A stretch of 63,911 nt of DNA, the filler included, from Bacteroidales bacterium (GTDB lineage Bacteria > Bacteroidota > Bacteroidia > Bacteroidales > CAIWKO01): NCBI GenBank assembly GCA_035389045.1. It is 3 parts of 3 records of this genome, joined end to end, with 100 filler letters (N's around TTAATTAATTAA, not from the genome) between each part and the next. Parts side by side here need not be neighbours in the genome. Positions count along the whole stretch, not along the records: positions 1 to 26,800 come from DAOORA010000005.1; 2 more parts are not named here. One strand, 5' to 3'. The notes beneath the pieces were generated by a model. That model worked only from the letters and a program-made list of their open reading frames with translations. It was not told the DNA's origin and searched no databases. Below are positions 2,016 through 58,991 of this stretch, piece after piece; positions within the stretch are counted from its first letter, which is position 1; every line of letters begins with the position of its first letter. A program made the translations under genes and the position numbers.

Positions 2016-5000
2016 ATGAAAAATTTTAAGTTATGCCTTTTTGCAGTTGTATTTTTCATAACTGCGAGCCTTTCATACGGGCAAATCAGTAAAACTATCC
2101 TCAAAATTGCCACTATTAAAGACAAAACAGGCTGGGTTGAGTTTAAAAGCAAGCTGGACGCTGATCCTGCTCAGATATTTAATCTGTACCAAAGCGAATT
2201 TGGCCTGAACCCGGACGATCAGATGCAGATAGTACGGACGGTGACCGACAAAACAGGATATACTCACTACCGGTATCAGCAATATCACCAGGGAATTCCG
2301 GTTGAAGGAGCTGTATACCTCATACACAGCTTCGAAGGAAAAGCTGTCATGGGTAACGGAACCATTATTACAGGGAAGTATGTGCCGGTCGCACCTGCCC
2401 TGTCCCCGGCTGATGCTGTTGAAAAAGCCATTTCTTATACCCATGCCGGGCGCTATATGTGGGAAAATCCCGGTAATGAAGCGTTTATAAAAAAGATGAA
2501 AAAAGATCCCGCTGCCACCTTCTATCCTCAAGCCCAACTGGTGCTTTTCGACAAGCATTTCGGGAAGGATGCTGCGAAATATGTATTGGCCTACAAGGTG
2601 AATGTTTATGCTGTTAAGCCGTTATCCTATAAAAATATTTATATAGATGCCCTCACCGGCAAAGTTCTTCGTACCCTTGATCTGATCCGTGTGAGCGATG
2701 TTCCCGGCACGGCACATACCAAATACAGCGGCATCAGAACCATCACCGTGGATTCTACAGGCCCCGGCGCTTATCGTCTGAGGGAATCCGGGCGCTGTGG
2801 TATCGAAACCTATGATATGAACACTTCTACGGATTATAATACGGCTGTTGATTTTACAGATACCGACAATATCTGGAATAACGTGAATGCACAACAGGAT
2901 GAGATAGCCACCGATGCCCATTTTGGCGCTGAAGTCACCTATGATTATTATATGGATAAATTTAGCCGGGACAGCTATGATGACCTGGGTTCACCCCTGA
3001 TCAGTTATGTTCATTACGATGTGGATTATGCCAATGCTTTCTGGAACGGATTATGTATGACGTATGGCGACGGCGACGGCGCTCAGGAAGGCCCGTTCAC
3101 GGCTCTGGACGTTTGCGCTCATGAGCTTACCCACGGTGTTACAGAATATACCGCCAATCTTATTTACCAGGATGAGCCCGGGGCTTTGAACGAGGCTTTC
3201 AGCGATATATTCGGCACAGCAGTGGAGTTTTACGCCACTCCTTCCCTGGCCGACTGGTTTGTGGGTGAAGATTTCGATCTTACCGGCGGTAATGGTTTCC
3301 GCAATATGTCGGATCCTAACGAAGACGGGCAGCCCGATACCTACCTGGGCACAAATTGGTATACCGGCACCCTGGACAATGGCGGAGTGCACCGAAACAG
3401 CGGTGTGGCAAATTATTGGTTTTACCTGCTCTCGGAAGGCGGCAGCGGCACCAATGACAACGGCAGAGTTTATCTTGTTGACAGCATCGGTATTGAAAAA
3501 GCAGCACAGATAGCTTACCGAGCACTATCCGTATACCTGACGCCGGCATCCAACTTTTATGATATGCGCATAGCCAGCATACAGGCAGCGACAGACCTTT
3601 ACGGCAGCTGCTCCAACGAAATGGCCCAGACCGCCAACGCCTGGTTTGCCGTGGGTGTGGGTATGGGCATTTCTGATAACGACGTTTATATCAACAAGGT
3701 GGTCACACCTCAAACGGCTTGTGGCATGTCCAGCGAAGTTGTCAAAGTGAGGATGTTTTACAATGGATGCAATCTGCCGATAAATGCCGGCGACAGCATT
3801 TATTTCTTCTACCAGGCCGACGGAGGGCCTATAGTAAATGATACGCTTATCCTCACTTCCCCCATAAATGGCGGCGACTCCCTCGATTTCACTTTTTCTG
3901 TTACGGCCGATGTTCACACCCTGGGATATCATACGGTGGATTGCTGGGTAAAGTATGTCAATGATACGGTTGCATACAATGATACACTGGCCACCTATAC
4001 CTTCGAAAACAAATTATATCAGAACAGCGATGTCGGGGTAACAGGTTTTGCCTCACCGGTCACCGAATGTAATCTGAGCCATGCGGAAGATGTGACCATA
4101 AAAATAGGATTCTTTGGCTGTGAATACCTGCCTGCAGGCCATGAAATCCCGGTAGGCTACAGTATTAACAACGGGTCTTATATTTATGACACCTTAACAA
4201 CAGCTTATGATATGTATCCGGATTCGGTTTTTTATTTCACCTTCTCCACTCCTGCCGACCTGTCCGGTTCCGGAGCCAGCTATACCTTCAAAGCCAAAAC
4301 CTTCTTCGACATCGACAGCCTGAATACCAATGATGAGTTTGTAAGTTATGCAGTCAAAAATCCTCTTAGCCTGACGGATACCATCGTAACTTTTGAGCAA
4401 AGCAATGCAAGCAATATGTATATGGTGAGCCTGGCGCCCTATGCCAATGCGTCTATTACTTCTGCCGCCCATAACACCGGGGCCAAAGGTTTCCAGATGA
4501 CCGGCGGCAATGCTTTTGCATATTACACCATGCTCGAATTTCCTGATGGTTCAAATACGTGGACCATCAACGATTTTCTGTCTGCAAAAATAACCTTTTG
4601 CGTTGATGCAACCAACTGGACCACAGCCCACATGCGATACGACCTGAAGCAAACCTTTGGTAAACAGGGCTACGAAATGGTGCTGGGCAGCAGCTACGAT
4701 TATTCAGTAGCAAGCAATTTCAGGGTGCTGGTCAACGGCATTCAGGTAGGCGGCACCTACAACCCCGTAACGGCATATTCCGATCCTTTTGTCACGCATT
4801 TTATTGACCTGAGCGCTCATGCCGGAACTAAATTCAATGTTACTTTTGAAACAAGGAATATTTGTAAGGACACGCTGATCTTAATTATGGATAACGCCTA
4901 TGTGGACAATGTAAAATTCATGCAGATATCAGATGTAGGTATCGAAGCAGAAGACCTGAGCGGAAATCTCGAAATTTTCCCTAATCCGGTCAATGAAATT

Positions 5001-5210
5001 CTTTATATCAACCTGTTTTCAAATGAGTTGCAGAAAGTAAATATGGAACTTATGGATGTTCAGGGCAAACTGCTTGAAAGCAAAACGGAACACTCTTCCA
5101 TTGGCCCGAATGTCTTTCAGATGGATATGACGGGGAGAGCGCCGGGGATTTATTTCATCAGGATGAGCACCGGCAAAGGCATATATAACAATAAGATAAT
5201 AAAGAAATGA
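2016..5210 (+). CDS. M4 (thermolysin-family) metallopeptidase with propeptide, Ig/CARDB-like repeats and T9SS CTD
   Basis: NAFWNG, HELTH (3120-3134), NEAFSD and GGVHRNSG motifs; FTP/PepSY-like propeptide (HYRYQQYHQGIPV); C-terminal IFPNPV..GIYFIRM..KIIKK. Confidence 0.93.
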   Translation: MKNFKLCLFAVVFFITASLSYGQISKTILKIATIKDKTGWVEFKSKLDADPAQIFNLYQSEFGLNPDDQMQIVRTVTDKTGYTHYRYQQYHQGIPVEGAVYLIHSFEGKAVMGNGTIITGKYVPVAPALSPADAVEKAISYTHAGRYMWENPGNEAFIKKMKKDPAATFYPQAQLVLFDKHFGKDAAKYVLAYKVNVYAVKPLSYKNIYIDALTGKVLRTLDLIRVSDVPGTAHTKYSGIRTITVDSTGPGAYRLRESGRCGIETYDMNTSTDYNTAVDFTDTDNIWNNVNAQQDEIATDAHFGAEVTYDYYMDKFSRDSYDDLGSPLISYVHYDVDYANAFWNGLCMTYGDGDGAQEGPFTALDVCAHELTHGVTEYTANLIYQDEPGALNEAFSDIFGTAVEFYATPSLADWFVGEDFDLTGGNGFRNMSDPNEDGQPDTYLGTNWYTGTLDNGGVHRNSGVANYWFYLLSEGGSGTNDNGRVYLVDSIGIEKAAQIAYRALSVYLTPASNFYDMRIASIQAATDLYGSCSNEMAQTANAWFAVGVGMGISDNDVYINKVVTPQTACGMSSEVVKVRMFYNGCNLPINAGDSIYFFYQADGGPIVNDTLILTSPINGGDSLDFTFSVTADVHTLGYHTVDCWVKYVNDTVAYNDTLATYTFENKLYQNSDVGVTGFASPVTECNLSHAEDVTIKIGFFGCEYLPAGHEIPVGYSINNGSYIYDTLTTAYDMYPDSVFYFTFSTPADLSGSGASYTFKAKTFFDIDSLNTNDEFVSYAVKNPLSLTDTIVTFEQSNASNMYMVSLAPYANASITSAAHNTGAKGFQMTGGNAFAYYTMLEFPDGSNTWTINDFLSAKITFCVDATNWTTAHMRYDLKQTFGKQGYEMVLGSSYDYSVASNFRVLVNGIQVGGTYNPVTAYSDPFVTHFIDLSAHAGTKFNVTFETRNICKDTLILIMDNAYVDNVKFMQISDVGIEAEDLSGNLEIFPNPVNEILYINLFSNELQKVNMELMDVQGKLLESKTEHSSIGPNVFQMDMTGRAPGIYFIRMSTGKGIYNNKIIKK

Positions 5211-7504: not shown

Positions 7505-7620
7505 AATATTTTTTTACAAACTTACAAAAAAATTTATATGTCATGCGATTAGCCCAAAAATGAACGCTGTCAGGTCAAATTATTTGTTATATCTTTCTTG
7601 TATAGTTTTTCCGATGGAAT

Positions 7621-7628
7621 TATATTTG
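7621..7628 (+). promoter_or_regulatory. Bacteroidota -7 promoter box (TATATTTG) upstream of the TMTC-like array
   Basis: Matches TAnnTTTG about 70 nt before ATG 7701. Confidence 0.5.
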
Positions 7629-7700
7629 TCAAAAAATGTACACGGAAAATTGCTCCTGCCCTTTTGGTATCTGCTGAAATTATAGTAGAAACATACATAA

Positions 7701-9923
7701 ATGACCGAGAAAAACAAAAGCAAAAAAAATACCCGGAAAACCGGTTCAGGGAAAAAGACAACTGAAAAGCCAGTTGCCATCAGGCATAAATGGGTTTGGA
7801 CCGCTTTACTGCTTGTCCTGCTTACCACTTTTGCTGTTTATTTTAATGCCATAAAATTTGATTTTCTGCGAAACTGGGATGACAATCAATATATTTATGA
7901 GAACGCTCATATCATGGGTTTGCAGTGGGAAAACATCAAATTGTTTTTCACCAGTTTCTATGTAGGTAATTATCAACCGGTAACCATGTTATTTTTTGCA
8001 ATAGAATATAAAATCGGCGCAGGACATGCTTCAGTGTTCCATCTGACGAATATCTTACTGCATCTGTTCAATACTTTATTTGTTTTTATTTTTATACGGA
8101 AAATAGTTCCGAAAGGAAACGCTGTTGCCCTGATCACGGCTGCTTTTTTTGCTGTTCACCCTATGCATGTTGAATCTGTAGCCTGGATCTCGGAACGAAA
8201 AGATGTGCTGTATTCCTTTTTTTTCATGATTTCACTGATATTGTATGCAGAATATATCAAAAGACCGAGAGTATTGCTCCTGGTGTCAGCGGCTATCCTG
8301 CACATACTTTCCTGTATGAGTAAGTCGGCAGCGGTTATTCTGCCCTTAGTGATGCTTCTTATTGATTATTACACCGGACGTAAATTCAGGTGGGCCATCA
8401 TTATAGAAAAAATTCCTTTTTTTGTAATTTCACTTGTTTTCGGCTATGTCGCCACACTGTCGCAAAAAGGCGCCATGGAATATATATTGCCTGACATTTC
8501 ATTAATCAACCGCATTTCACTGGTATCTTATTCTGTTTTTAGTTATATTTATAAAGCATTCATACCTGTTCATCTGTCGGCCATTCACCCTTATCCGCAT
8601 GAAACCGGAGGGATGCTGCCGCTGATATTCTATTTCTCTGTGCTCTTCACAGGGATAATACTCTTTGCCGTATGGTTCTCGCGCAGGTGGGGTAAAGACG
8701 GTATTTTCGGATTTCTTTTTTTTCTTATCACGATCATCCTGGTACTTCAGTTTTTGCCTTTCGGGGCTGCAATCATGGCTGACCGTTATACCTATATCCC
8801 TTACATTGGGTTGTTTTTCATTACAGGCAAAATCTATGAATACGTTGTAAGGCATTTGGATAAAAATCATAAAAAATTCAATAAAGTACCTTTTGGCCTG
8901 ATGATATTGTGTTTTATTATTTTTTCAGCAATCAGTTTTGCAAGGGTGCAAAAATGGAAAAATGATGAAATACTTTTTACTGATGCCATGAAAAAATACC
9001 CGGATTGCTGTGTCCCTTATTTCAACCGGGGACACTATTACTCAAATTATTATGCCAAAACAATGTTTGCGAACGATAGCAGAAACAGAGAGAACTATTT
9101 TAATAAAGCCATCTCGGATTATGAAAATGCATTGAAATTTGGTTTGAATAAAGCGGATACCGCTATCGCCTACCTCAGCATGGGAAATGTAAGAAGTGAT
9201 CTCGGAGATTACTATGGCGCTATATATGATTACGATAAGGTAATAAAAACAGATTCCAAATATTTAAATGCTTATATTAACAGAGGTAACGCCAGAAGTA
9301 AGCTTATGGATTTTAAAGGCGCTCTTGAAGATTTTAATAAAACCCTTGAAATCGATTCCAATAATTTAATTGCTTTGATAAACCGGGGTATCACAAAAAA
9401 TAATCTGAACGATTACACAGGAGCTTTGTCGGATTTTGATAAAGCAGCCTCTATCGATAAGAACAACTATAATGTTTATAACAACCGGGGATTCAGCAGG
9501 TTCATGATGAAGGATTATGCCAATGCGATACTTGATTATGACAGAGCTATCAATATCGATAAGAATAATCCTTCAGCCTACATCAACAGAAGTTATGCAA
9601 AACGCGAGGCAAAGGATTACCGGGGCGAACTTGAAGATTTGGATAACATCATTGCATTGGATCCGCAAAATCCTTATTCATACAGTAACAGAGGTGTCGC
9701 AAAATTTCGCATTAATGATTATCAGGGCGCTATGGATGATTTTACAAAAGCCATTGAAATTGATGAACGTTTTGCAAAAGCATACAACGACAGAGGGTCT
9801 GCAAGGTATATGCTAAAAGATTATAAAGGCGCACTGGAAGATTACAACAAGGCTATAGAGAATGACCCTCAGCTGGTGGAAGCGGTCGAAAACAGAAACA
9901 AGGTATTAAAGATGCTGAAATAA
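7701..9923 (+). CDS. TMTC-like multi-pass GT-C glycosyltransferase with C-terminal TPR repeats (paralog 1)
   Basis: Many TM helices; NWDD, YQP, HLTNILLH, FAVHPMHVESVAWISERKD, SKS, ADRYTY motifs; long TPR tail (AYxNRG..A..DF/YxKAIE). Confidence 0.85.
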   Translation: MTEKNKSKKNTRKTGSGKKTTEKPVAIRHKWVWTALLLVLLTTFAVYFNAIKFDFLRNWDDNQYIYENAHIMGLQWENIKLFFTSFYVGNYQPVTMLFFAIEYKIGAGHASVFHLTNILLHLFNTLFVFIFIRKIVPKGNAVALITAAFFAVHPMHVESVAWISERKDVLYSFFFMISLILYAEYIKRPRVLLLVSAAILHILSCMSKSAAVILPLVMLLIDYYTGRKFRWAIIIEKIPFFVISLVFGYVATLSQKGAMEYILPDISLINRISLVSYSVFSYIYKAFIPVHLSAIHPYPHETGGMLPLIFYFSVLFTGIILFAVWFSRRWGKDGIFGFLFFLITIILVLQFLPFGAAIMADRYTYIPYIGLFFITGKIYEYVVRHLDKNHKKFNKVPFGLMILCFIIFSAISFARVQKWKNDEILFTDAMKKYPDCCVPYFNRGHYYSNYYAKTMFANDSRNRENYFNKAISDYENALKFGLNKADTAIAYLSMGNVRSDLGDYYGAIYDYDKVIKTDSKYLNAYINRGNARSKLMDFKGALEDFNKTLEIDSNNLIALINRGITKNNLNDYTGALSDFDKAASIDKNNYNVYNNRGFSRFMMKDYANAILDYDRAINIDKNNPSAYINRSYAKREAKDYRGELEDLDNIIALDPQNPYSYSNRGVAKFRINDYQGAMDDFTKAIEIDERFAKAYNDRGSARYMLKDYKGALEDYNKAIENDPQLVEAVENRNKVLKMLK

Positions 9924-10029
9924 GAAAGGAAAAACATATGAATTTTGTTGCAGTTTCCGTGAACTTAAACTGGTTGACCTGCCCGAACAGTATAATCTAT
10001 TGTTGCACCCAGGCGGCAAATAAATCATC

Positions 10030-11952
10030 ATGAACCCCAAAGAAAAAATATCAAAACCCGGGCAAAAAACGGGCAAGCCTAAAAAAGCAAACGACAGATC
10101 AAAAAGAAAATATAGCAATGTATTGATCTGGTCAGGCATAGCCATCATTATTCTCACCACTTTCTTTATCTATCTGAAAGCGGTGAATTACAGGTTCCTG
10201 TTCAACTGGGATGATGACAGTTACATTATTGACAATGTTGACATCAAAGATCTCAAATGGGCCAATATCAAACTATTCTTCACAAGCTTTTATGTAGGGA
10301 ACTATCAGCCTCTGACCATGTTGTTTTATGCTCTGGAGTACAAGTTAGCCGGGTTGAACGCATCTTTATTTCATTTTAATAATATACTGTTGCACCTGAT
10401 AAATACGTATCTGGTCTTTGTATTAATTAAAAAAATTTCACCGGAAAATATCATTGTTCCATTGATAACCGCCTCTTTATTTGCGGTACACCCTATGCAT
10501 GTCGAATCAGTAGCATGGGTCTCTGAGCGCAAAGATTTGCTCTATTCCTTTTTCTTTCTGCTTTCGCTTATAATGTATATAAAATATCTTAAGGAGGGAG
10601 ATCTAAAATACCTGACCGTGGCCGGGTTGTGTTTCATTTGCTCTTGTCTGAGTAAATCTGCCGCGGTTATTCTGCCCCTGGTCATGCTTCTTTTTGATTA
10701 TTATACCAACAGGAAATACTCATGGAAGATGTTCCTTGAAAAAATTCCTTTCTTAGCTGTTTCTGTAATTACGGGCATCGTGGCGATATATTCGCAGCAG
10801 GACGCCATCAGGGATATGCCCCCTCAAATGTCATTCATTGAGCAGGTTGCAGTGGTTTCTCATTCATTTATCAGTTATATTGTCAGGGCTTTTGTGCCGG
10901 TGAACCTTGCAGTAATCTATCCCTACCCGAAAGAGATCGGCAGTGTCCTGCCGGTATTGTATTATCTGGCCATTCCCTGTGTGGCAGGTCTGATAATTTT
11001 AGTTTGGTATTCTCGTAAATGGGGAAAAGATGGCGTCTTCGGCACTTTGTTTTTTCTGATAAACATTATTCTCGTGCTTCAGTTTTTGCCTGTCGGGGCT
11101 GCTGCCCTGGCCGACAGATACACCTATATGTCCTATACCGGCATTTTCTTCATCATTGGAAAACTAACAGCCTATATGACGAGTAACACTAATGCTTTTT
11201 TCAGAAAATATAAAAACAGCGTCATAATTGCTTTCCTGCTTGTTTTCATAGTATTTTCGGTCATAAGCCATCAGCGGGTAAAGCAATGGACCGATGTTGA
11301 TACGCTTTTTTCGGATGGCATTGAAAAATACCCGCACAGTTATTTATCACATTATATCCGGGGTGTTTGTTACCTAAAATACCATGCCTTGATTTTAAAT
11401 GCCAGTGACCCTGTAAAAAAAGAAATGTATGTGAAAAAATCCATGGACGACTTTAGTAAGGCTATATTATTTCGCAGAAATTATCCGGATGCGTACTCCA
11501 ACAGAGGTTATGCCAAAGGTTTATTAAATAATTATCCGGCTGCCATCAATGATTACGACAGCGCACTTTTGCTTGATCCCAAATATACTAATGCATTAAT
11601 CAACCGCGGTGAAGCAAAACGTGAGCTGAAAGATTATAATGGTGCTCTTGAAGATTTTACCAAAGCCATTGAAGTAAGCCCGCAAAGCGCTATTGCTTAT
11701 CATACAAGAGGTTCAGCAAAATTTTTTCTGGAAGATTACAAAGGCGCTCTTGAAGATTACGACAGCGCGCTGAAAATTGACACTCTTTTTACAATGGCTT
11801 ATAATAACAGAGGCTCAACAAAATTCTTGCTGCAGGATTACGAAGGCGCTCTCGCAGATTACAATATTTCTATTAAATTAGATCCACAAAATGCAGAAGC
11901 GTTGAAAAACAGGGAAGTAGTTCTGGCGAAATTAATGAATACAGTTAAATAA
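10030..11952 (+). CDS. TMTC-like GT-C glycosyltransferase + TPR (paralog 2)
   Basis: NWDD, YQP, FAVHPMHVESVAWVSERKD, ADRYTY; shorter TPR tail. Confidence 0.85.
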   Translation: MNPKEKISKPGQKTGKPKKANDRSKRKYSNVLIWSGIAIIILTTFFIYLKAVNYRFLFNWDDDSYIIDNVDIKDLKWANIKLFFTSFYVGNYQPLTMLFYALEYKLAGLNASLFHFNNILLHLINTYLVFVLIKKISPENIIVPLITASLFAVHPMHVESVAWVSERKDLLYSFFFLLSLIMYIKYLKEGDLKYLTVAGLCFICSCLSKSAAVILPLVMLLFDYYTNRKYSWKMFLEKIPFLAVSVITGIVAIYSQQDAIRDMPPQMSFIEQVAVVSHSFISYIVRAFVPVNLAVIYPYPKEIGSVLPVLYYLAIPCVAGLIILVWYSRKWGKDGVFGTLFFLINIILVLQFLPVGAAALADRYTYMSYTGIFFIIGKLTAYMTSNTNAFFRKYKNSVIIAFLLVFIVFSVISHQRVKQWTDVDTLFSDGIEKYPHSYLSHYIRGVCYLKYHALILNASDPVKKEMYVKKSMDDFSKAILFRRNYPDAYSNRGYAKGLLNNYPAAINDYDSALLLDPKYTNALINRGEAKRELKDYNGALEDFTKAIEVSPQSAIAYHTRGSAKFFLEDYKGALEDYDSALKIDTLFTMAYNNRGSTKFLLQDYEGALADYNISIKLDPQNAEALKNREVVLAKLMNTVK

Positions 11953-12003
11953 CTTATGGCTGAAGGGTAATTAAATATATGTTCTTTCGTAATAATTTAA
12001 AAA

Positions 12004-13926
12004 GTGAAAACAAAAGACAAGGATAAAAGAATAAATAAATATCAAGTACAACAGAAGAAAGCCACTCAGGCGTCCGGCACTAAGTTCATCAGCACATGGG
12101 CGTGGGCTGCTTTAGGGATTGTTTTACTGACAACATTGGTGATCTATGTCAGGGCTATAGGCTTCGACTTTCTTCAGAACTGGGATGACCAGGCATATAT
12201 ACGTGAAAACGAACACATTAAAAATCTGAATCCGGACAGCATCAAGCTGTTTTTCACCGAATTTTATGTGCAGAATTACCAGCCGTTTACCATGCTTACC
12301 TATGCCATTGACTATAAGATCGGCGGCGGCGATGCTTCGCTGTTTCACTTCAACAACATCTTACTGCATCTGCTGAATACAATACTGGTATTTCTGCTGA
12401 TCAAAAAGATCATTCCCCAAAACGACCGTGTGGCCATAATTACCGCTGCCTTTTTTGCTGTACACCCTATGCACATCGAATCGGTGGCATGGGTGGCTGA
12501 GAGAAAAGACGTACTGTATTCCTTTTTCTTTATACTCGCACTACTAATGTATACAACTTACCTTAAATCTCAAAAAATCAAACACTTGTCTGTTGCCTTT
12601 CTATTTTTTGTCCTCTCCTGTTTAAGCAAGTCTGCAGCTGTAATATTACCGTTGGTGATGCTGCTTTTTGATTACTACCTGAAACGGGAATTTAAAATAA
12701 AAATCATCCTTGAAAAGCTGCCTTTCTTTGCCGTATCACTCGTATTCGGGATTATTGCCATGTACTCCCAGAAAGGTGCTATTCAGTATCTGGCGCCTGA
12801 AATGACCTTTATGGAACATATTTCTGTGTTTTCGTTTTCCTTTTTATCATATATAATCAAAGCTTTTGTCCCTGTAAATCTTTCGGCTATATACCCCTAT
12901 CCCGCTGAACTGGGTGGAATGCTGCCCCTGTGGTATTACCTTTCGATACCATGCATTATCCTGTTGCTCCTGTTTGTATGGTATTCGCTGAGGTGGGGAA
13001 AAGACATCGTTTTCGGATTCCTCTTCTTTTTAATTACCATCATCCTTGTGCTTCAGTTTATCCCTGTCGGAGCTGCATCCATGGCCGACCGTTATACATA
13101 TATTCCTTATATAGGTATTTTTTTCCTTACCGGCAAGTTGTTTGAATATGTTTCTTACGGTACCCATAAAAAAATTAATAAAGCGAAAAACTATTTTATT
13201 GCAGCATTAGCACTGGCTTTTATCCTGTTTTCCGTCATCAGCTTCGGCAGGGTAAAAAAATGGGAAAATGATGAAATACTGTTTTCCGATGTTAAGAAAA
13301 AATATCCCGGGGCTGCCCTGCCCTATTTTATTACCGGGGATTATTACCTGGCCTATTACCGTGCTTATGCGGATGACAAAAATAAAAGGGATGCTTATCT
13401 GAAGAAAGCCTATCAGGAATATGCAAATGCCCTGAAACGTTCAGTAAAAAAGACGGATAAAATAAAAGCATATAAGAATATGGGAAGCGCTGTCTATAAT
13501 ATGGGGATTTTTCCCCATGCCATAAGTATTTACGACAGCGTCATCGCTCTGGATGAAAATAATGCTGATGCCTATTCCGGCCGGGGCAATGCTAAACGTG
13601 AACTAAAAAAATATGACGCAGCCCTTACCGACCTGAATCATGCGCTGACACTGGATCCGGACAATGCGCTGATATACAGCAACAGAGGCATTACAAAATA
13701 TAATATGAATGATTTTCAGGGTGCCTTTGAAGATTTTGACCAGGCCATAAAAAGAAACAGCAATTATGCCAAAGCCTATAACGACAGAGGCTCTGCAAGG
13801 TTTATGCTGAAAGATTATGACGGAGCGCTGAAAGATTACAGTAAGGCTGTGGAATTAAATCCTAAATATGCCGAAGCCATCAATAACCGGAATATGGTTC
13901 TGACACTTATGGAGAATTCAAAATAA
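12004..13926 (+). CDS. TMTC-like GT-C glycosyltransferase + TPR (paralog 3)
   Basis: GTG start; NWDD, YQP, FAVHPMHIESVAWVAERKD, ADRYTY; TPR tail. Confidence 0.85.
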   Translation: MKTKDKDKRINKYQVQQKKATQASGTKFISTWAWAALGIVLLTTLVIYVRAIGFDFLQNWDDQAYIRENEHIKNLNPDSIKLFFTEFYVQNYQPFTMLTYAIDYKIGGGDASLFHFNNILLHLLNTILVFLLIKKIIPQNDRVAIITAAFFAVHPMHIESVAWVAERKDVLYSFFFILALLMYTTYLKSQKIKHLSVAFLFFVLSCLSKSAAVILPLVMLLFDYYLKREFKIKIILEKLPFFAVSLVFGIIAMYSQKGAIQYLAPEMTFMEHISVFSFSFLSYIIKAFVPVNLSAIYPYPAELGGMLPLWYYLSIPCIILLLLFVWYSLRWGKDIVFGFLFFLITIILVLQFIPVGAASMADRYTYIPYIGIFFLTGKLFEYVSYGTHKKINKAKNYFIAALALAFILFSVISFGRVKKWENDEILFSDVKKKYPGAALPYFITGDYYLAYYRAYADDKNKRDAYLKKAYQEYANALKRSVKKTDKIKAYKNMGSAVYNMGIFPHAISIYDSVIALDENNADAYSGRGNAKRELKKYDAALTDLNHALTLDPDNALIYSNRGITKYNMNDFQGAFEDFDQAIKRNSNYAKAYNDRGSARFMLKDYDGALKDYSKAVELNPKYAEAINNRNMVLTLMENSK

Positions 13927-14003
13927 CCCTGAACATAACACCCCATCAGGCAAAGACAGCAGGAACTTAAAGAATATATTGCTGAGGCAAATATCGTTCA
14001 CAG

Positions 14004-16106
14004 ATGCAAAAAGACAAGTGTCAGAAAAATAACAAACAAAAAGCCACCCCGGGAAATGCAGCCCCCATTGCTGACAGATGGCTATGGATTGCCATAGCGC
14101 TTGTTTTATTTACCGTGGTTGCCATTTATTTTAAAGCCTTGTCATTTGATTTTCTGCATACCTGGGATGATAATTATTATATAAGCGGGAACAGTCATAT
14201 AAAAAATATGGGCTGGATAAATATAAAACGCTTTTTTACAGAGTTTTATGTCGGCAATTACCATCCTCTCACCATGCTGATGTATGCTGCCGAATATAAG
14301 GTAGCCGGAGATTCAGCATTATTATTTCGACTAAGCAATATATTGCTTCATATGGCCAATACGGTGCTGGTTTTTGTTGTAATCAGAAAAATATATACCG
14401 GGAATGTGCTGGTTGCATTGATTACTGCTGCTTTTTTTGGCGTTCATCCAATGCATGTCGAATCGGTTGCCTGGATATCCGAAAGAAAAGATGTGCTATA
14501 CGCATTTTTCTTTCTTCTTTCGCTGATCATGTATACCAACTACCTTCAAACCAAGCGGTTAAACCAAATAATTTCAGCTTTAGTTTTTTTTCTGTTTTCG
14601 TGCCTGAGCAAGCCGGCGGCGGTTATTATACCTTTAGTAATGCTTCTTTTTGATTATTACACCAACCGAAAATACGAAAAGAAATTACTGCTTGAAAAAA
14701 TCCCTTTTTTTGTGATTTCTATACTTTTCGGAGTCATTGCGCTTTTTTCACAGCAGGATGCCGTCAGGGAAATACCCTCTGACATCCCTTTCATGCAGCA
14801 CATTGCGATAATTTCATTTTCATTTGTGAGCTACCTGTATAAAGCATTGCTGCCTGTGAAATTATCTGCAGTTTATCCCTATCCCACTGAAGGTGGAAGC
14901 GCACCCTTAATAATATATTATATTTCTATATTACTTGTTTTGCTTATACTTTGGGGGGTATGGTATTCGCGCAAATGGGGAAAAGATACGGTATTTGGTT
15001 TTCTGTTCTTTGTCATAACCATAATACTGGTCTTGCAGTTTATTCCGATAGGTACGGCCTCTATGGCCGAAAGGTATACGTATATTCCTTACATAGGCTT
15101 GTTTTTTGTGGCAGGCCGCTTTTTTGAGTTTCTGCAGAAAAATATGACAGGAAAATTTTCCGGGTATAAAATTTACCTCTCCCTGATATTTATTCTGGGG
15201 TTCATTATTTTTTCAATTATATCAGGCCAGCGTGTAAAAACCTGGAAAAACGATGACATTCTCTTCTCGGATGTTATAGCAAAATACCCCGGATGTAAAC
15301 TTGCTTATCTGAACCGGGGATCATATTATTATCAGGTATATGCTTCTATTACAGACGGAAGCTATAATCCGGAGAAAGACAAGTATTTGAAAATGGCGCT
15401 ACAGGATTTTGATAAGGCCATTGCGATAGATAACAATTATTGTAAAGCTTATTCCAACAGGGGCCTGGCGAGGTACAATTTAAATGACTATAAAGGCGCC
15501 ATACAGGATCTGGACAAAGCCATTGAAATAAATCCCGATATTGCAGTACAGTATTATTACCGGGGTAATGCCAGAAAAGCGCTTCATAATTATGCCGGAG
15601 CCATTAAAGATTACGACCTGGCTATTAAATTGGATACCTTGTTTATTGACGCATACAACAACCGGGGTTCTGCAAAAAACATCACAGGTGATTATCGCGG
15701 CGCTATTGGAGATTTCAGCATGTTAATCCGATTATCCCCGGGTAATTCCATAGCATATTTCAACAGGGGGCTCAATGAAAATGCCATCAGCGATTATAAA
15801 AACGCCATAAAGGATTTTAACAAGGCCATTGAAATAGATACCGGTTTTGCCATGTCCTATTATCACCGGGGCAAAGCCAAATACCTGTCGGAAGATTACG
15901 AAGGCGCCATCTGGGATTTCGGCGCAGTGATCAGGAGAAACCCGCAGGATGCCGTGCCATATAATCAAAGAGGCAACGCACGCTACCAGCTGAAAGATTA
16001 CCGGGGCGCCCTGGAAGAATACAGCAAGGCCATTGAACGGCACCCTCAATATACCGAAGCCATTTATAACAGGGATATGGTTTTAAGGATATTGAAGAAT
16101 CAATAA
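14004..16106 (+). CDS. TMTC-like GT-C glycosyltransferase + TPR (paralog 4)
   Basis: TWDD, YHP, FGVHPMHVESVAWISERKD, SKP, AERYTY; long TPR tail. Confidence 0.85.
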   Translation: MQKDKCQKNNKQKATPGNAAPIADRWLWIAIALVLFTVVAIYFKALSFDFLHTWDDNYYISGNSHIKNMGWINIKRFFTEFYVGNYHPLTMLMYAAEYKVAGDSALLFRLSNILLHMANTVLVFVVIRKIYTGNVLVALITAAFFGVHPMHVESVAWISERKDVLYAFFFLLSLIMYTNYLQTKRLNQIISALVFFLFSCLSKPAAVIIPLVMLLFDYYTNRKYEKKLLLEKIPFFVISILFGVIALFSQQDAVREIPSDIPFMQHIAIISFSFVSYLYKALLPVKLSAVYPYPTEGGSAPLIIYYISILLVLLILWGVWYSRKWGKDTVFGFLFFVITIILVLQFIPIGTASMAERYTYIPYIGLFFVAGRFFEFLQKNMTGKFSGYKIYLSLIFILGFIIFSIISGQRVKTWKNDDILFSDVIAKYPGCKLAYLNRGSYYYQVYASITDGSYNPEKDKYLKMALQDFDKAIAIDNNYCKAYSNRGLARYNLNDYKGAIQDLDKAIEINPDIAVQYYYRGNARKALHNYAGAIKDYDLAIKLDTLFIDAYNNRGSAKNITGDYRGAIGDFSMLIRLSPGNSIAYFNRGLNENAISDYKNAIKDFNKAIEIDTGFAMSYYHRGKAKYLSEDYEGAIWDFGAVIRRNPQDAVPYNQRGNARYQLKDYRGALEEYSKAIERHPQYTEAIYNRDMVLRILKNQ

Positions 16107-16360
16107 TACAGGGTTGGCAAAAGTATTAACAACGGACCGATATTCTTTGATAATAAATGCGCCATGAGTCAATAAATACATGACCTTTAATCTGTCACAG
16201 CGGTTCGCATATTTTTTTTATATTCTCTGCTTCAATCTGTTTTGTCCGCAGGAAACAATTTTCATTGTCTTAAGCAAAGGTCGGGAGAAAACATGCTCTC
16301 TGAAAATTTTACCCTGCCTTGCAAGAAAAAAATATTTACCTTCGCCGAAAATTACACTTG

Positions 16361-17335
16361 ATGAAAGTTGCCGTCACAGGCGCAAGCGGACATGTCGGGG
16401 CCAATTTGTGTCCGTTGCTTATAGAAAAAGGGTTTGAAGTCAACGTATTATCATTCAGAGATGACAGAGCTTTTCGCCATCTTCCGCTTACGATTTTCAA
16501 AGGAGATTTAAATGATCCGTCAACACTCGATGCCTTTCTAGAAGGTGCCGATGTGGTTATCAACACTGCGGCATACATTTCGGTAAATCTCAACGATGAC
16601 AATACGGTATACAGCACCAATGTAAACGGTACCCGCAACCTGGTCAGCAAATGCATGGAGCATCATGTAAAAAGGCTGATCCATTTCAGTTCCATACATG
16701 CTTTCAATCCTTTTCCGCTGAATGAATCTCTTGATGAAGAACGTCCTCTGGCTGTCGAACCTGAATTTATCTATGACCGCAGCAAAGCCGATTCTGAAAA
16801 GATCATAAGAAAAGCGAACTGTAAAACGCTGGAAACAGTGGTACTGAACCCGACGTCTATTATTGGTCCCGGCGACCATAAACCTTCACTCATCGGCCGT
16901 ACCCTCCTGAACCTGTACCATAAGAAACTTCCTGCCCTGGTCCGTGGTGGTTACGATTTTGTGGACGTACGTGACGTAGCTCAGGCTGCTGTGAATGCAA
17001 TAACCCTGGCCAGAGCCGGCGAAAAATACCTGTTGTCGGGAAAATGGCATAGCATAAGGGAGTTCGGTGATACCTTCAGCACGATAAGCGGGATAAAACG
17101 TCCGTGGTTTATATGCCCGCTATGGCTTGCCAAAGCCGCCTTACCTGTAGTCAGACCATTCCTGAACAAAGAGATACGGGTGGTCTTTAACAGACAAACC
17201 ATTACCATTCTGGCTGAAAGCAACAGGAACATCTCGTCAGCGAAAGCCCGAAAAGAACTGGAATTTAAAAACAGAAATATCAGTGAGAGCATCGGCGATG
17301 CCCTGCACTGGTTCAAAGAAAACAGCTATTTATAG
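16361..17335 (+). CDS. NAD-dependent epimerase/dehydratase (extended SDR; dihydroflavonol reductase/3-beta-HSD/HpnA-like)
   Basis: MKVAVTGASGHVG Rossmann motif, YDRSK (YxxxK), FVDVRDVA; ATG at 16361 preferred over TTG 16319, with a TACCTTCG promoter-like box at 16337-16344. Confidence 0.85.
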   Translation: MKVAVTGASGHVGANLCPLLIEKGFEVNVLSFRDDRAFRHLPLTIFKGDLNDPSTLDAFLEGADVVINTAAYISVNLNDDNTVYSTNVNGTRNLVSKCMEHHVKRLIHFSSIHAFNPFPLNESLDEERPLAVEPEFIYDRSKADSEKIIRKANCKTLETVVLNPTSIIGPGDHKPSLIGRTLLNLYHKKLPALVRGGYDFVDVRDVAQAAVNAITLARAGEKYLLSGKWHSIREFGDTFSTISGIKRPWFICPLWLAKAALPVVRPFLNKEIRVVFNRQTITILAESNRNISSAKARKELEFKNRNISESIGDALHWFKENSYL

Positions 17336-17345
17336 CCCATCGACG

Positions 17346-18101
17346 ATGATATCTGAATATACTTTTAATATAATATTAATTTGCTGGATTTTATTTGGCC
17401 TCATCATTTTCGGGGTTCTTTTTAAAATTACGGCGCCTTACGGCAAATTTTTAAGCAATAAATGGGGCGCCCTGATCAACAACCGTCTGGGATGGATCAT
17501 CATGGAATCTCCGCCGCTGATCCTGTTTTCATTCTTTTTTTTCCGCGGCGACAATACCACAAATCCGGTATGTCTGGTTATTTATTTGATATGGATGCTG
17601 CATTATGTCAACCGCGACCTCATTTTTCCTTTCAGACTGAAGACAAATGGCAAAAAAATGCCTGCTGTGATCATGAGTTTCGGCTTGATATACAATACGT
17701 TCAATGCTTTTTTCAACGGGTATTATCTTGGTTTTTTTGCCAATTATCAAAACTCCTGGTTCACCGATTACCGCTTTGTTGCCGGAGTGATCATCTTTAT
17801 TGCCGGTTTTATCATCAACATAAGTTCCGATAATATCCTTTTCAAACTCCGTAAACATTCGTTCGATTATAAGATTCCTCAGGGAGGGCTGTTTCGTTTT
17901 GTTTCCTGTCCGAATTACCTGGGCGAGATCATGGAATGGATGGGTTTTGCCATTCTATCCTGGTCACTCGCCGGTTTTTCATTTTTTGTGTGGACTATGG
18001 TAAACCTTCTGCCAAGGGCTTTTTCGCACCATGATTGGTACAGGAAACACTTCAGCGAATACCCGGCAACCCGTAAAGCGCTGATACCCTTTATCATCTG
18101 A
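17346..18101 (+). CDS. 3-oxo-5-alpha-steroid 4-dehydrogenase (steroid 5-alpha-reductase family)
   Basis: APYGK, WIIMESP, HYVNRDLIFPF, YKIPQGGLFRFVSCPNYLGEIMEW, NLLPRA..HHDWY, RKALIPFI; ATG 17346 lies 10 nt after the SDR stop. Confidence 0.92.
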   Translation: MISEYTFNIILICWILFGLIIFGVLFKITAPYGKFLSNKWGALINNRLGWIIMESPPLILFSFFFFRGDNTTNPVCLVIYLIWMLHYVNRDLIFPFRLKTNGKKMPAVIMSFGLIYNTFNAFFNGYYLGFFANYQNSWFTDYRFVAGVIIFIAGFIINISSDNILFKLRKHSFDYKIPQGGLFRFVSCPNYLGEIMEWMGFAILSWSLAGFSFFVWTMVNLLPRAFSHHDWYRKHFSEYPATRKALIPFII

Positions 18102-22373: not shown

Positions 22374-22892
22374 CTATTTCATAATGCAGCGGATTATTCC
22401 CTTCAGCTTTTCCACGTCATTCTTATTAAGTACCCTGTTAAATGGCTCAATACCGACATTTAAAGCCATAGTGAGGGGTTTCATTTCAATCATTTTTTCA
22501 AGGTCTTCCGAACGTATGGGGTAGTCGACCATGTACTCGGTCCAGGCCTGATCGCCGTAATGAGGGATGGGCTTAGAACGTGCCACTGAACATAGCAACA
22601 GTGTTTCTCCTCCGGACAGGGCAATAGAAGCGGTATCATTCTTTTCAATAACCTCCCTAAGCGCCCCGCTGATCCAGAAATTCAGTGTCAAAACATAAGA
22701 AGTGTCATTTCGGCTGATGATGACATAAAAGATATCGGTTCCGGTGAGTTTGGTTTTAATCTTTTTTATAGGCGCAGCGGTAACGGGGTCTGTTTTGTTG
22801 GTTTCAAATTTACACTCTGAACTTTGGCTAAACCCTGAGAATACCATTGTATTACAACAGATTAACAAAAAAAATATTTTCAGTGATCTCAT
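22374..22892 (-). CDS. hypothetical secreted protein
   Basis: 172 aa, signal peptide ending GFS-Q; caaatata promoter box at 22913-22920. Confidence 0.7.
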   Translation of the reverse strand: MRSLKIFFLLICCNTMVFSGFSQSSECKFETNKTDPVTAAPIKKIKTKLTGTDIFYVIISRNDTSYVLTLNFWISGALREVIEKNDTASIALSGGETLLLCSVARSKPIPHYGDQAWTEYMVDYPIRSEDLEKMIEMKPLTMALNVGIEPFNRVLNKNDVEKLKGIIRCIMK

Positions 22893-23069
22893 AATTTTAT
22901 TTTTTGGCTAAACAAATATACAATAATTGTGCAATTTCCGAAATACATAAAAGAAAGTAAATGACTAATAAGAGTTTTATTGTTTTTGATACAATTAATA
23001 AATACATTTGGTGTCCCGATAAAAAATAACCTATTAAAAAACAAAAAACAGGATTAAAAAGGCATTTTA

Positions 23070-23417
23070 ATGAAAAAAAATACTTTCGCAATCGTCATAA
23101 TTATTATAGGATTATTTTTGGTTTCCTGTGAGGGGCCGAAAACTTTTTCGGTGACTGTTGTCGACAAAGTAACACAGCAGCCTGTTGATAGCGTATTAGT
23201 TATTGTGAAAGTGAAGGCCGGTAACAAAGAGAAAAGCGCTTACAATTTAGAAGGTTTTACAGATGCATCCGGGAATTTCACCAGGGAAGAAATGATCGGC
23301 TATGGCCTGAGCCTGAAGCGCTGGCATTTTTATATGGAATATGATAAAAAAGGTTATATTCATAAAACAGAATCAGACCGTACCGAAGGTGTGGTTGAGT
23401 TAGAGCCTTCACGCTAA
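23070..23417 (+). CDS. hypothetical lipoprotein (carboxypeptidase-regulatory/transthyretin-like fold possible)
   Basis: LVS-C lipobox; VTVVDKVTQQPVDSVLV..FTDASGNF..YDKKGY. Confidence 0.7.
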   Translation: MKKNTFAIVIIIIGLFLVSCEGPKTFSVTVVDKVTQQPVDSVLVIVKVKAGNKEKSAYNLEGFTDASGNFTREEMIGYGLSLKRWHFYMEYDKKGYIHKTESDRTEGVVELEPSR

Positions 23418-23460
23418 GATTCATACATGGAGTTTTCGAACAGGCACTAAACAGAAATCA

Positions 23461-24072
23461 TCACCTGATATTACAAGTCAGCATTTTCTTGTCTTCCAGG
23501 TAGGCGGTAAGCCTGTCCCCTATTTTCACAGGCCCAACGCCTGCTGGCGTCCCCGTAAAAAACAGGTCGCCGGTTTTCAGGGTGATGAATTGTGAAACAT
23601 GGGCAATGATCTGGTCGATGCTGAAAATCATGTGAGACGTGTTTCCCGACTGTACTGTTTCTCTATTTTTTTTCAATGAAAAGTTAAGGTTTTTTATGTC
23701 GGGAAACTCAGCGAGGGGCACAAAACTGCTGATGGGTGCGGAACCGTCGAAGCCTTTGGTTTTTTCCCATGGAAGTCCCTTGTGTATGGCCTCCGATTGC
23801 AGATCGCGGGCAGTCATGTCGAGGCCTACAGCAATTTCATCATAGTAGGTATGTGCAAATTTTTCCTGAATATACTTCCCTACTTTGCAGATACGAAATA
23901 CGATTTCGACTTCGTACTGAACATCATTTGAAAAATCGGGGTAAAAGAAAGGCCGGTTGCGCGTAACCAGCGCAGTATCAGGTTTCAGGAAAAACAAAGG
24001 CTCTTTGGGCAAATCGTTTTTCATCTCCCGGATATGATCTGAATAGTTTCGCCCGATACAGATGATCTTCAT
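23461..24072 (-). CDS. fumarylacetoacetate hydrolase family protein
   Basis: KIICIGRNY, FLKPDTAL, YEVE, DMTARDLQ, GDLFFTGTPAGVG. Confidence 0.93.
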   Translation of the reverse strand: MKIICIGRNYSDHIREMKNDLPKEPLFFLKPDTALVTRNRPFFYPDFSNDVQYEVEIVFRICKVGKYIQEKFAHTYYDEIAVGLDMTARDLQSEAIHKGLPWEKTKGFDGSAPISSFVPLAEFPDIKNLNFSLKKNRETVQSGNTSHMIFSIDQIIAHVSQFITLKTGDLFFTGTPAGVGPVKIGDRLTAYLEDKKMLTCNIR

Positions 24073-24129
24073 AGTTTATATCATTAAAATGAGAAATTTT
24101 TTGTTGTACTCCTGAGTAAAAAAAATATT

Positions 24130-24196
24130 CGACCCCGCCGGGGTCGCAAGTTCTTTGTGTTTTGTTTTTTACGACTATTTGAATCCTCCGGATTCA
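24130..24196. repeat. pair of short REP-like hairpins
   Basis: CGACCCC-gcc-GGGGTCG (24130-24146) and TGAATCC-tcc-GGATTCA (24180-24196), each 7-bp stem/3-nt loop preceded by TATT. Confidence 0.55.
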
Positions 24197-24231
24197 GTTT
24201 TATGCTATTATTGGGAGTTTTTTTAAAAAAA

Positions 24232-26800: not shown

Positions 26801-26900
26801 NNNNNNNNNNNNNNNNNNNNNNNNNNNNNNNNNNNNNNNNNNNNTTAATTAATTAANNNNNNNNNNNNNNNNNNNNNNNNNNNNNNNNNNNNNNNNNNNN
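26801..26900. other. artificial contig linker
   Basis: 44 N + TTAATTAATTAA (stops in all six frames) + 44 N. Confidence 0.97.
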
Positions 26901-27686: not shown

Positions 27687-30600
27687 ATGAATTACTTCAA
27701 ATATTTATTCATATTTTTTTTAGCTGTATTGACCTTCACCAAAGTTGTATCTCAAATTTCCACTCAACATCTTCAATTGTGGTTAGCAGCAGATACCGGA
27801 GTTATTATTACAGCGGGTAAAGTTTCGCAATGGAATGATATAAGTGGGAACAATTTTCATGTAACTCAAACAACAGAAAATGCCCGTCCATTGCAAATTG
27901 AAAATTCACTTGGCGGAAAACCCGTTATCAGATTTGATGGTGTTGATGATAATATGATTGTGAATTTCTCTTCGACCTACATTCAACCAAATACGTTCTT
28001 TATTGTCTGGAAGTCTTTAAAGCCAATTACAAGTTCAAGCACAGCGTTTTCTATCAATAGCACTAATTCCAATGGCTTGTATGCCGCTACAAACAATAGA
28101 ACAGTTGTCAATGCCGGAACCAACCTAATTGGTACAAGTAGTTTAATATCCAGCAACTATGTTGTGCACTCTTGGAATATGAACGGAAGCACTTCAAAAA
28201 TTTATGAAAATAATCAATTAAAAATATCTGGAAATTGTGGTTCCAATGGTGTTTCCAGATTGTGGATCGGCGAATTAACCGGATTTGCTTCCTATAGATT
28301 TAAAGGTGATATTGCAGAAATAATTTTTTACGATACTATACTTGCAGACACAAACAGGGTAAAAGTTGAGAATTATTTGATGGATAAATATGCAAATATT
28401 TATTTGGGCGAAGATATATGTGCAAATACAACAGACACAATATTGCGTATAGATGCGTTGTTTACTGATATTTTATGGTCAACAGGTGATACAACAAACA
28501 GTATAACAATAAATCAAAGTGGCAGATACTGGGTGAGAGCAACAGATGTTTTTGGCCGGATACAATCAGACACCATAAATGTTGGGCTTATTGCTTTTGC
28601 AATTGGAGACAAGAATATATGTTTTGGCGATACGGCAATTTTTAGTGTAAATCTTTCCGGAGCATATAATTATCTTTGGTCAACACTGTCAATCAACGAC
28701 TCCATATCTCTCACTCAGGATGGCGAATATTGGCTGAAAGTATCAGACACCATTGGATGTTCGTATACTAAATATTTTAACTTAGCTATTGATAGTTTTC
28801 CGGTAAATGTTTCTCTTGGCAATGACACCGTAATTTGCATCGGAAATAAAATTGGATTAGTGCAAGGAGCTGACCAGGTTGTGTCTTATGAATGGCTTCC
28901 GGGCAGTTACAATGGCCCGGAGTTATATATTTATAGTAGTGGGCAATACCGTGTTAATGTTATGAATGGAAATTCGTGTGAGGGTTCTGATTCAATATAT
29001 ATCAGCATTAAAGGCGTTGCCCCAACACCACACTTTTCAGTACAAAATTTCTGCCTTGGTGACTCAACATTTTTTACCGATTTTTCACAACACCCCGACA
29101 GTATCGCTTTATATAACTGGATTTTTCCTGGAAACGACACCATCAACACACCAAGTCCAGCGTACAAGTTTGGTAATTATGGTACGCAAAACATAAGTCT
29201 GCTATTAGAGTCGCATGGAGGGTGCATAAAAGACACATCTTTTTCCATTGAAATTCTTGAGACTCCTTTGCTTATTTTTACTACTAACCCCGCATGTTCA
29301 AACACAACTATTGAATTTATTCCAGAAATTATTACTCCCACAGGGCAATACTTAACAAATAAGGCATGGTACATTGACAATTCGTTTGTTTCGGATGATG
29401 ATACACTACGACACATATTCAACGACGTAGAAAATTATTTGCTAACATTTGAAGTCACCAGTAATAATTCATGCGTTGTCAGATTTTCTGACACCCTTGT
29501 AATTAAAGGAATAACTCCCTCACCAAACTTCCTGGTTGAAAATTTTTGCCTTGGGGATTCCACGGCCTTTACGAATTTATCCTTACCAATAGATAGTATT
29601 GTATCAAATAAATGGCTTATCTCCGGCCAGGACACATTATCTGTTCAAAATCCCCAATATTTATTTGACAGTTTTGGTTTAAAAAATATAAAATTAATAG
29701 TGGAAACCTATAGCGGTTGTATTAAAGACACTTCTTTTACCATTGAAATTTATGACATACCATCAGTTGAAATTACAAATACGCTGCCTGTTTGTACAAA
29801 TATTTTATCAGAATATATTGCTGATATTAATATTCCTCAAGGTCAAAACATAATGCAACAATCGTGGTTTATCAATAACATTTTTTATTCAGATTCAGAC
29901 ACCATAAATTATCTTTTTAATATATCAGGCGACTATGAAATAAAACTGGAGGTCGTCAGTGACAAGAATTGTATCGCTTTTACCCAAGACACCATTACTG
30001 TAATGGATAATTACCCATCTCCTTCGCAATTTTCATTGGAATACCCTTTTAATAATGATGTTTTGATTAATAGTATTGTTAATTTTCAATGGTCATTATC
30101 ACAAAATGCTTATTATTATGAAATTATACTTTCCAATAATACTGATTTTAGCGATACTATTTTTACCAAAAACAAAATATTCAGTAATAACATAGATATT
30201 TCTTTACCAAACGATATCAGTTCTGCATTCTGGAAAGTTAATGCTTATAATCCTTGTGTAATATTTAATAGTTCAGACATTAACTATTTTAGCATTTTTC
30301 AGCCTTCTGATTTGTCAAATTTACATGTTTGGTATTGTGCAGATACTGGTATTGTTGAAACAAACGGCAAAATATCAAAATGGAGTGACCGGAGTGGAAA
30401 TAGTATAGATGCTTTGCAAAACACAATAGCTAACAGCCCCGTATTTCTTGAAAACGAATTAAACAATCTGCCTGTAGTTTATTTTAATGGGAATCAATAT
30501 TTGACAGCTTTCTTTAATGATACTATAATTCGTCCCAACACTTTTTTTGTTGTCTGGAAACCTGATGTTATTCAAACAACCAATATAGTTTTTGACGGAG

Positions 30601-58891: not shown

Positions 58892-58991
58892 NNNNNNNNN
58901 NNNNNNNNNNNNNNNNNNNNNNNNNNNNNNNNNNNTTAATTAATTAANNNNNNNNNNNNNNNNNNNNNNNNNNNNNNNNNNNNNNNNNNNN
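58892..58991. other. artificial contig linker
   Basis: 44 N + TTAATTAATTAA + 44 N, identical to 26801-26900. Confidence 0.97.

Follow-up and report, generated by a model that had tools for sequence, protein, structure and literature searches.

What do four co-oriented genes for large membrane proteins with tetratricopeptide repeat (TPR) tails do in a bacterium of the order Bacteroidales? The genes (7701-16106) lie on a 63,911-nucleotide (nt) stretch of DNA from assembly GCA_035389045.1, hereafter the window, which consists of three contigs joined by N spacers at 26801-26900 and 58892-58991; positions 1-26800 represent contig C5, which carries the array, and positions 26901-58891 contig C55. 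The array genes probably encode periplasm-facing glycosyltransferases (GTs) of the GT-C(A) fold, part of a 42-member panel, that would pass a lipid-linked sugar to an acceptor held by the TPR arm. The locus is organized as follows.

7505-7700, + strand: intergenic region 5' of the array, common to the divergent argS, with the sole TAnnTTTG (-7-like) match of the locus at 7621
7701-9923, + strand: paralog 1 (P0001), 740 residues; GT-C domain at about residues 27-417 with 11 transmembrane (TM) helices, then seven TPRs and a capping helix
10030-11952, + strand: paralog 2 (P0002), 640 residues; GT-C domain, then four TPRs and a cap
12004-13926, + strand: paralog 3 (P0003), 640 residues, GTG start; GT-C domain, then four TPRs and a cap
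14004-16106, + strand: paralog 4 (P0004), 700 residues; GT-C domain, then six TPRs and a cap; motif variants YHP, SKP and AERYTY

The four co-oriented open reading frames (ORFs), their sizes and spacing, and all the motifs listed in an initial annotation of this DNA were found again in the sequence. The successive paralogs are separated by gaps of 106, 51 and 77 nt. Paralogs 2-4 share 49-55 % identity with paralog 1, and pairwise matches among the four have E-values of 1e-150 to 1e-168, which excludes a chance likeness. The GTG start of paralog 3 is supported by the alignment of its N-terminal tail with the N-tails of paralogs 1, 2 and 4. The motif TAnnTTTG, which we take to be a -7-like promoter consensus, has one match 80 nt 5' of paralog 1 and none in the three inter-paralog gaps, at a window background of 0.59 per kb. 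This distribution is consistent with a single four-gene transcript, and from these features the four genes probably form one co-transcribed operon. A sigma-70 promoter scan (40 vs 31.6±6.0), based on a model ill-suited to Bacteroidota, and a terminator scan (10 vs 7.8±2.9) did not rise above shuffled sequences.

Fold, topology and conserved residues

For residues 1-445 of paralog 1, AlphaFold2 with an alignment of 43 membrane domains gave a model with a pLDDT of 89.0 and a pTM of 0.90. Full-length paralog 2 was modelled with a pLDDT of 90.2 and a pTM of 0.86, and in this model TM11 continues into the TPR superhelix. Structural comparison revealed that the membrane-domain model most closely matches the protein-modifying GT-Cs AglB, Pmt1/2 and STT3, in agreement with Foldseek. 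On the basis of the model and this comparison, the fold of the membrane domain is assigned to GT-C(A), as the initial annotation had proposed from motifs; the lipid- or lipopolysaccharide (LPS)-modifying GT-C or non-enzymatic membrane protein that it had named as contrary best matches did not come out on top.

The order of helices in the model, which agrees with the 11-TM scheme put forward for TMTCs in PMC7801869, and the positive-inside rule indicate 11 TM helices with the N-terminus inside. In all four proteins, the cytoplasmic segments of that scheme hold 18-26 lysines plus arginines per 59-65 residues, compared to 10-12 per 150 residues in the periplasmic segments, and the basic N-tails hold 5-11 per 21-27 residues. 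The loop bearing the WDD motif, the HP..ERKD loop, residues K208 and R362 and the TPR arm are all predicted to be periplasmic, and the N-tail to be inside. The WDD loop and the TPRs thus fall on one extracytoplasmic side, as had been anticipated, and a cytoplasmic WDD loop was not seen.

Five motifs are invariant in the four proteins: WDD (residues 59-61), NY(Q/H)P (90-93), HPMH(V/I)ESVAW..ERKD (153-168), SK(S/P) (207-209) and A(D/E)RYTY (360-365). Residues D60, D61, K208 and R362 are invariant across the 43 aligned membrane domains, at identities as low as 19 %, and the acidic dyad DD typical of GT-Cs is retained, as are the Lys and the Arg, in 42 of the 42 paralogs of the genome.

The TPR arms comprise 7, 4, 4 and 6 canonical repeats in paralogs 1-4, respectively, each in an exact 34-residue register and each closed by a capping helix. 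In all six pairs among the four, the TPR domains (39-50 % identity) are more divergent than the TM domains (52-59 %). Searches of the four against Pfam gave TPR families and marginal PMT_2 matches only, and those against NCBIfam gave only sub-threshold TPR matches.

Relation to TMTC, PMT and ArnT enzymes

The metazoan proteins TMTC1-4 (GT105; PF08409 plus TPRs) are O-mannosyltransferases of the endoplasmic reticulum that act on the extracellular cadherin (EC) domains of cadherins and protocadherins. They share with the array proteins an N-terminal GT-C domain followed by C-terminal TPRs, as well as 11 TM helices with a cytoplasmic N-terminus and extracytoplasmic TPRs. The order of motifs is also the same, with DD and (S/N)Y.P in the first extracytoplasmic loop (EL1), FAVHP.H.E at TM3/EL2, K in EL3 and A(E/D)R..Y before TM10. 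In both cases, moreover, a genome has several paralogs that differ in TPR arm. The array proteins differ from TMTC1-4 in a shorter and diverged TM7-TM8 loop, and in a copy number of 42 rather than 4. For bacterial enzymes at the periplasm, a carrier lipid of the undecaprenyl type would be expected instead of dolichol.

In the TMTC scheme of PMC7801869, an 11-TM protein carries DD and SHKSYRP in EL1 and AER..Y before TM10, and an Asp in EL2 is paired with the Lys of KET in EL3; these motifs are read there as catalytic/acceptor-binding, sugar-binding and donor-phosphate-binding sites. By their description there, M1, M2, M4 and M7 correspond to WDD, NY(Q/H)P, SK(S/P) and A(D/E)RYTY of the array proteins, which upholds the TMTC motif order first proposed for them. 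Prokaryotic TMTC homologues receive a passing mention in PMC7801869, PMC8724618 discusses TMTC-like genes in protists only, and PMC11292533 describes TMTCs as GT105 enzymes specific for Ig-like domains.

Four of the 42 paralogs in this genome (L044, L045, L047 and L050) match DUF1736 at 18.9-32.5 bits against a cut-off of 27, with one or two above it depending on the search. Their relatives are named 'DUF1736 domain-containing protein' (NCBI) or 'protein O-mannosyl-transferase' (JGI). Alignment of the clade of the array genes against the DUF1736-positive clade by hhalign gave a probability of 99.9 % and an E-value of 2.1e-34 over 383 columns, including the TM7-TM8 loop. As the alignment spans the very loop that misses DUF1736, the tie to TMTC is one of homology without the family signature. 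Bacterial TPR proteins that carry the automatic names 'DUF1736 domain-containing' or 'protein O-mannosyl-transferase' fall within the same superfamily, share its architecture and co-occur in this genome; the array-gene subfamily differs from them in having no detectable DUF1736 signature and in being largely confined to Bacteroidota.

A feature search of the ESM Atlas matched, with a score of 0.92, a eukaryotic cluster in which 25 % of the members carry TMTC_DUF1736. Among the top 120 matches of the most TMTC-like paralog, all those with a named source are bacterial or metagenomic and none is named TMTC. Most of the homologues examined are called just 'tetratricopeptide repeat protein', as had been said of bacterial homologues at the outset. 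The original assignment as TMTC-like holds for architecture, topology and motif order and fails for strict family membership, because none of the four matches TMTC_DUF1736. Judged by sequence, the array proteins are best placed outside GT105 proper, in a putative sister subfamily of the TMTC-type GT-Cs that is bacterial and divergent.

Matches to PMT_2 are marginal. With hmmscan (cut-off 26.1 bits), P0003 scores 31.2 bits and P0002 24.6 bits, and P0001 and P0004 have no match; a six-frame search of the genome gave 35.7, 28.9 and 24.1 bits for three of the four array genes. Genes with a PMT_2 match make up 10 of the 42 paralogs. Compared to PMT (GT39), the four lack a MIR (β-trefoil) domain by Pfam and possess a C-terminal TPR array instead; compared to ArnT (GT83), they have no NCBIfam ArnT match.

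A 42-member family under purifying selection

A search of the whole 4.46-Mb genome revealed 42 intact paralogs of 604-864 residues with no internal stop, which together span 85,164 bp or 1.9 % of the genome. The initial annotation saw four genes; the distinctive point is this 42-copy expansion. The paralogs are grouped into a ten-gene tandem array on contig C23, a 6+2 array on contig C11, the present four-gene array and smaller groups. The four-gene locus is not unique, and arrays of this type are common and already visible in public annotation. The two larger arrays are located as follows.

C23:23013-44133: ten-gene head-to-tail array, with AFOR/Rho upstream and the kdp operon downstream
C11:38562-51462 and 63565-67975: 6+2 array, with LPS-core-type GT genes adjoining

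The wider family comprises 76,782 clusters at 50 % identity (E<=1e-3), or 14,749 at E<=1e-30. All 17 of the 17 other genomes of the genus have matches, 8-31 each. Matches extend to 7 of 12 other families of the order; five of its genomes, at 99-100 % completeness, lack them. Elsewhere in the phylum, positive genomes have 1-6 matches each among the best eight candidates scored per genome. The copy number in the present genome is far above that in the other genomes searched.

Beside the 42-member family, nine further PMT_2-type GT-C ORFs of 491-732 residues were observed, so the total GT-C complement is larger still. Their positions are listed below.

C63:11224-11715: PMT_2-type ORF
C4:83153-83608: PMT_2-type ORF
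C19:14668-15120: PMT_2-type ORF
C64:19970-20371: PMT_2-type ORF
C13:69611-70063: PMT_2-type ORF
C27:15613-16047: PMT_2-type ORF
C9:64343-64831: PMT_2-type ORF
C9:68974-69444: PMT_2-type ORF
C3:52998-53426: PMT_2-type ORF

A tree of 28 rows, from a quick LG+G4 search with two long outgroup rows flagged, does not unite the four array genes in one clade (four changes for four rows). In the sister genome G009, the first gene of the array is orthologous to paralog 2 (SH-aLRT 100), and the second clusters with paralog 3 (SH-aLRT 85). Paralogs 1 and 4 each sit on a long branch of their own, and paralog 1 has no one-to-one ortholog among the rows sampled. The pairing of P0002 and P0003 with G009 genes shows that the duplications predate the split from the sister species, which rules out a recent local burst as the origin of the four; a pair of paralogs on contig C35 of this genome is, by the tree, a recent duplication. 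In G009, too, the array borders a divergently oriented argS and adjoins the same M4 peptidase. These positional orthologs indicate that the locus is old, with members gained, lost or moved.

The dN/dS ratios are 0.04-0.26 in both domains for 10 of 11 close pairs, and in one pair the dS of the TM domain is saturated. Purifying selection on the membrane domain is as strong as that on the TPR arm. Ratios this low in close relatives indicate that the genes are maintained rather than decaying, so the retention suggested by the initial annotation is borne out, also by duplications older than the species split. Averaged over their length, the TPR arms show no positive selection (omega 0.04-0.26). For several gene pairs, the dS values of the two domains, membrane and TPR, are several-fold apart (e.g. 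0.28 vs 1.43), which suggests, at the level of sequence, recombination or arm-swapping among paralogs. The pairs with discordant dS are:

C51:17901-19895 vs 22374-24215
L059 vs L060
L061 vs L062

Mechanism, substrates and competing explanations

We propose that each gene encodes an inner-membrane GT-C(A) enzyme with 11 TM helices and a cytoplasmic basic N-tail. The DD dyad of the first periplasmic loop, the Lys at the end of TM5 and the Arg before TM10 would face the periplasm, and a rigid TPR superhelix of four to seven repeats would follow TM11 on the same side. By homology with TMTC, PMT, STT3 and ArnT, a single sugar would be taken from a polyprenyl-phosphate-sugar flipped to the periplasmic face of the membrane. 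It would then be passed to an acceptor held by the TPR arm, most likely at Ser/Thr residues of folded periplasmic or secreted proteins, and the four genes of one probable operon would offer different TPR arms for this step. We infer the lipid-linked donor, the protein acceptor and the TPR-based selection by analogy, and mannose is, likewise by analogy, a candidate for the transferred sugar. As the family has 42 members that come and go by birth and death, the system is most readily understood as a set of transferases that share one chemistry, each specific for its own acceptor.

For the donor side, a genome check suggested at the outset turned up candidates both for a GT2 polyprenol-phosphate-sugar synthase and for GtrA. 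Two GtrA-family genes are present, and GT2s resembling ArnC/PgfS lie beside GtrA on contig C64, directly 3' of a paralog pair on C11 and, on C104, 3.4 kb away from a paralog. The C64 cluster (C64:3547-10265, L052) contains a GtrA-family gene, a 311-residue PgfS/ArnC-like GT2, two radical-SAM genes, one of them B12-binding, and a C-methyltransferase; it could be a source of a modified lipid-linked sugar donor. It is adjoined by a small TPR protein and a CHU_C protein of the type IX secretion system (T9SS).

The neighbours of the array itself are argS and an HpnA/SdmB-like dehydrogenase with a gene of the 5-alpha-reductase family. The latter two (window 16319-18101) comprise a NAD-dependent dehydrogenase that resembles HpnA and SdmB (201 and 189 bits, respectively, each short of the cut-off) and an overlapping PF02544 steroid-5-alpha-reductase gene, a pair that may modify a sterol, hopanoid or polyprenol. 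A role of the 5-alpha-reductase-family gene as an array-linked polyprenol reductase was ruled out, as the neighbourhood is not conserved at the orthologous locus in G009.

As regards acceptors, the T9SS secretome of this organism is very large, with at least 150 ORFs carrying the Por_Secre_tail C-terminal domain (CTD) among 302 candidates. Three of its members lie in the window:

117-1679, 2016-5210 and 27687-33395: T9SS secretome members, including an M4 thermolysin-like peptidase that adjoins the array and a 1902-residue PKD-rich protein (27687-33395)

The PKD-rich protein is on contig C55 and hence physically unlinked to the array on C5. When each genus is represented by a single genome (n=14), the numbers of TMTC-like matches and of uncapped T9SS candidates are correlated (Spearman 0.82, and 0.79 after removing genome size), a comparison that ignores kinship and uses first-look candidate counts. 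On contig C104, a 506-residue T9SS-CTD protein (C104:139-1659) stops 10 nt short of a co-oriented DUF1736-type paralog (L053, 1670-3664), and the two are a possible enzyme-substrate pair; the ArnC-like GT2 of this contig follows 3.4 kb downstream. The adjacency of paralogs to T9SS-cargo genes was inspected by eye among the listed matches; as CTD genes occur at about one per 15-30 kb, CTD neighbours within 5 kb are unremarkable and no enrichment is claimed.

Several observations weigh against the proposal of lipid-linked sugar transfer to TPR-held proteins. ArnT and ALG12 lie no more than 2 Z units from the top structural match, so that GT-Cs with protein acceptors cannot be separated by fold from those with lipid or glycan acceptors. 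At E<=0.01, PF08409 (TMTC_DUF1736) matched none of the four proteins, nor were the four among its matches in the genome-wide search. A search of the PDB with the 43-sequence membrane-domain profile gave no match at E<=10, the membrane domain as a single sequence gave only a spurious best match at E 1.5, and the whole-protein profile retrieved TPR proteins only. With no DUF1736 match in the four and no PDB match, the mechanism rests on remote analogy, and in the literature searched we found no experimental work on a bacterial TMTC-like protein. On the donor side, several GT2s match ArnC, PgfS and PpgS (GtrB-like) over their full length at scores below the NCBIfam equivalog cut-offs, and polyprenyl-phosphate-sugar synthase-like enzymes also serve other pathways. 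Neither a donor synthase nor a candidate acceptor gene is present at the array locus, and the arrays of the genome occupy unrelated housekeeping settings (argS, Rho/AFOR, kdp operon). Within the genus (n=18), the correlation with T9SS candidates falls to a rho of 0.29 (partial -0.02), and two genomes of 99 % completeness have about 100 T9SS CTD matches and no TMTC-like gene. T9SS cargo as substrate, which the initial annotation had thought plausible, thus finds support across genera and not within the genus, and stays compatible with the data.

The alternative that survives best is that the array proteins are active GT-Cs with a non-protein acceptor, such as lipid A, another glycolipid or a periplasmic or surface polysaccharide, and that the TPR arm docks biosynthetic or export machinery. 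We consider this possible, if on the unlikely side. The closeness of ArnT and ALG12 in fold leaves room for it. Against it, the top structural matches are protein-modifying and the closest named relatives of DUF1736/TMTC type. Neither ArnT nor any other lipid-transferase NCBIfam model matched the four, and ArnT-type enzymes are not known to carry a TPR arm. Moreover, 42 copies with divergent TPR arms under purifying selection fit many macromolecular acceptors better than one lipid.

A second alternative holds that the proteins are non-catalytic membrane anchors for TPR scaffolds or chaperones, for example in secretion or envelope assembly, which have kept only a GT-C-derived fold. This is very improbable, as none of the 43 aligned sequences departs from D60, D61, K208 and R362, all 42 of the 42 paralogs keep DD at identities down to 19 %, and purifying selection acts with equal strength on the membrane domain and the TPR arm.

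Finally, the initial annotation linked the array to the general O-glycan of Bacteroidota, whose glycosylation system was reportedly described by Coyne et al. in 2013 as phylum-wide. TMTC and PMT, the closest named relatives of the array proteins, use polyprenyl-monophosphate single-sugar donors and do not transfer a glycan en bloc. The introduction of PMC8729774 still gave the O-oligosaccharyltransferase (O-OTase) of this system as unknown in 2022, and the array proteins are periplasm-facing GT-Cs in a Bacteroidota genome. We nevertheless give almost no credence to the idea that the four are the long-sought O-OTase(s), which would link the glycan, or the sugar that starts it, to D(S/T)(A/I/L/V/M/T) sites, because the family is too patchy in the phylum for a general enzyme (matches at E<=1e-5 in 50 of 201 genomes of 90 % completeness or more, whole families at 0/39 and 1/33, and five 99-100 % complete genomes of the same order with none), PF13231 (PMT_2) and PF08409 (DUF1736) have no match in the Bacteroides thetaiotaomicron control genome, and 42 copies are not expected of a single general enzyme.

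The proposal of a panel of TPR-guided, periplasm-facing GT-Cs can be carried one step further, to a scheme we regard as speculative and distinctly unlikely as a whole. It would be a combinatorial, domain-specific bacterial O-glycosylation comparable to metazoan TMTC plus TMEM260, in which dozens of paralogous GT-Cs share one lipid-linked donor and each TPR arm recognizes its own class of β-sandwich (Ig, PKD or CTD-bearing T9SS cargo) in transit through the periplasm. In such a scheme, the family would grow with the secretome and its arms would be reshuffled by recombination.

The family extends over many phyla and is among the largest bacterial membrane-enzyme families for which we found no experimentally tested member. 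It is the prokaryotic counterpart of enzymes linked to human developmental disorders (TMTC3). If its members do glycosylate proteins, they would add to the general OTase systems a second layer of bacterial protein glycosylation that is specific for its targets, in which the TPR arm would serve as a readable "address". With 42 intact copies on 1.9 % of its DNA and a very large T9SS secretome, this lineage is a good place to seek the targets.

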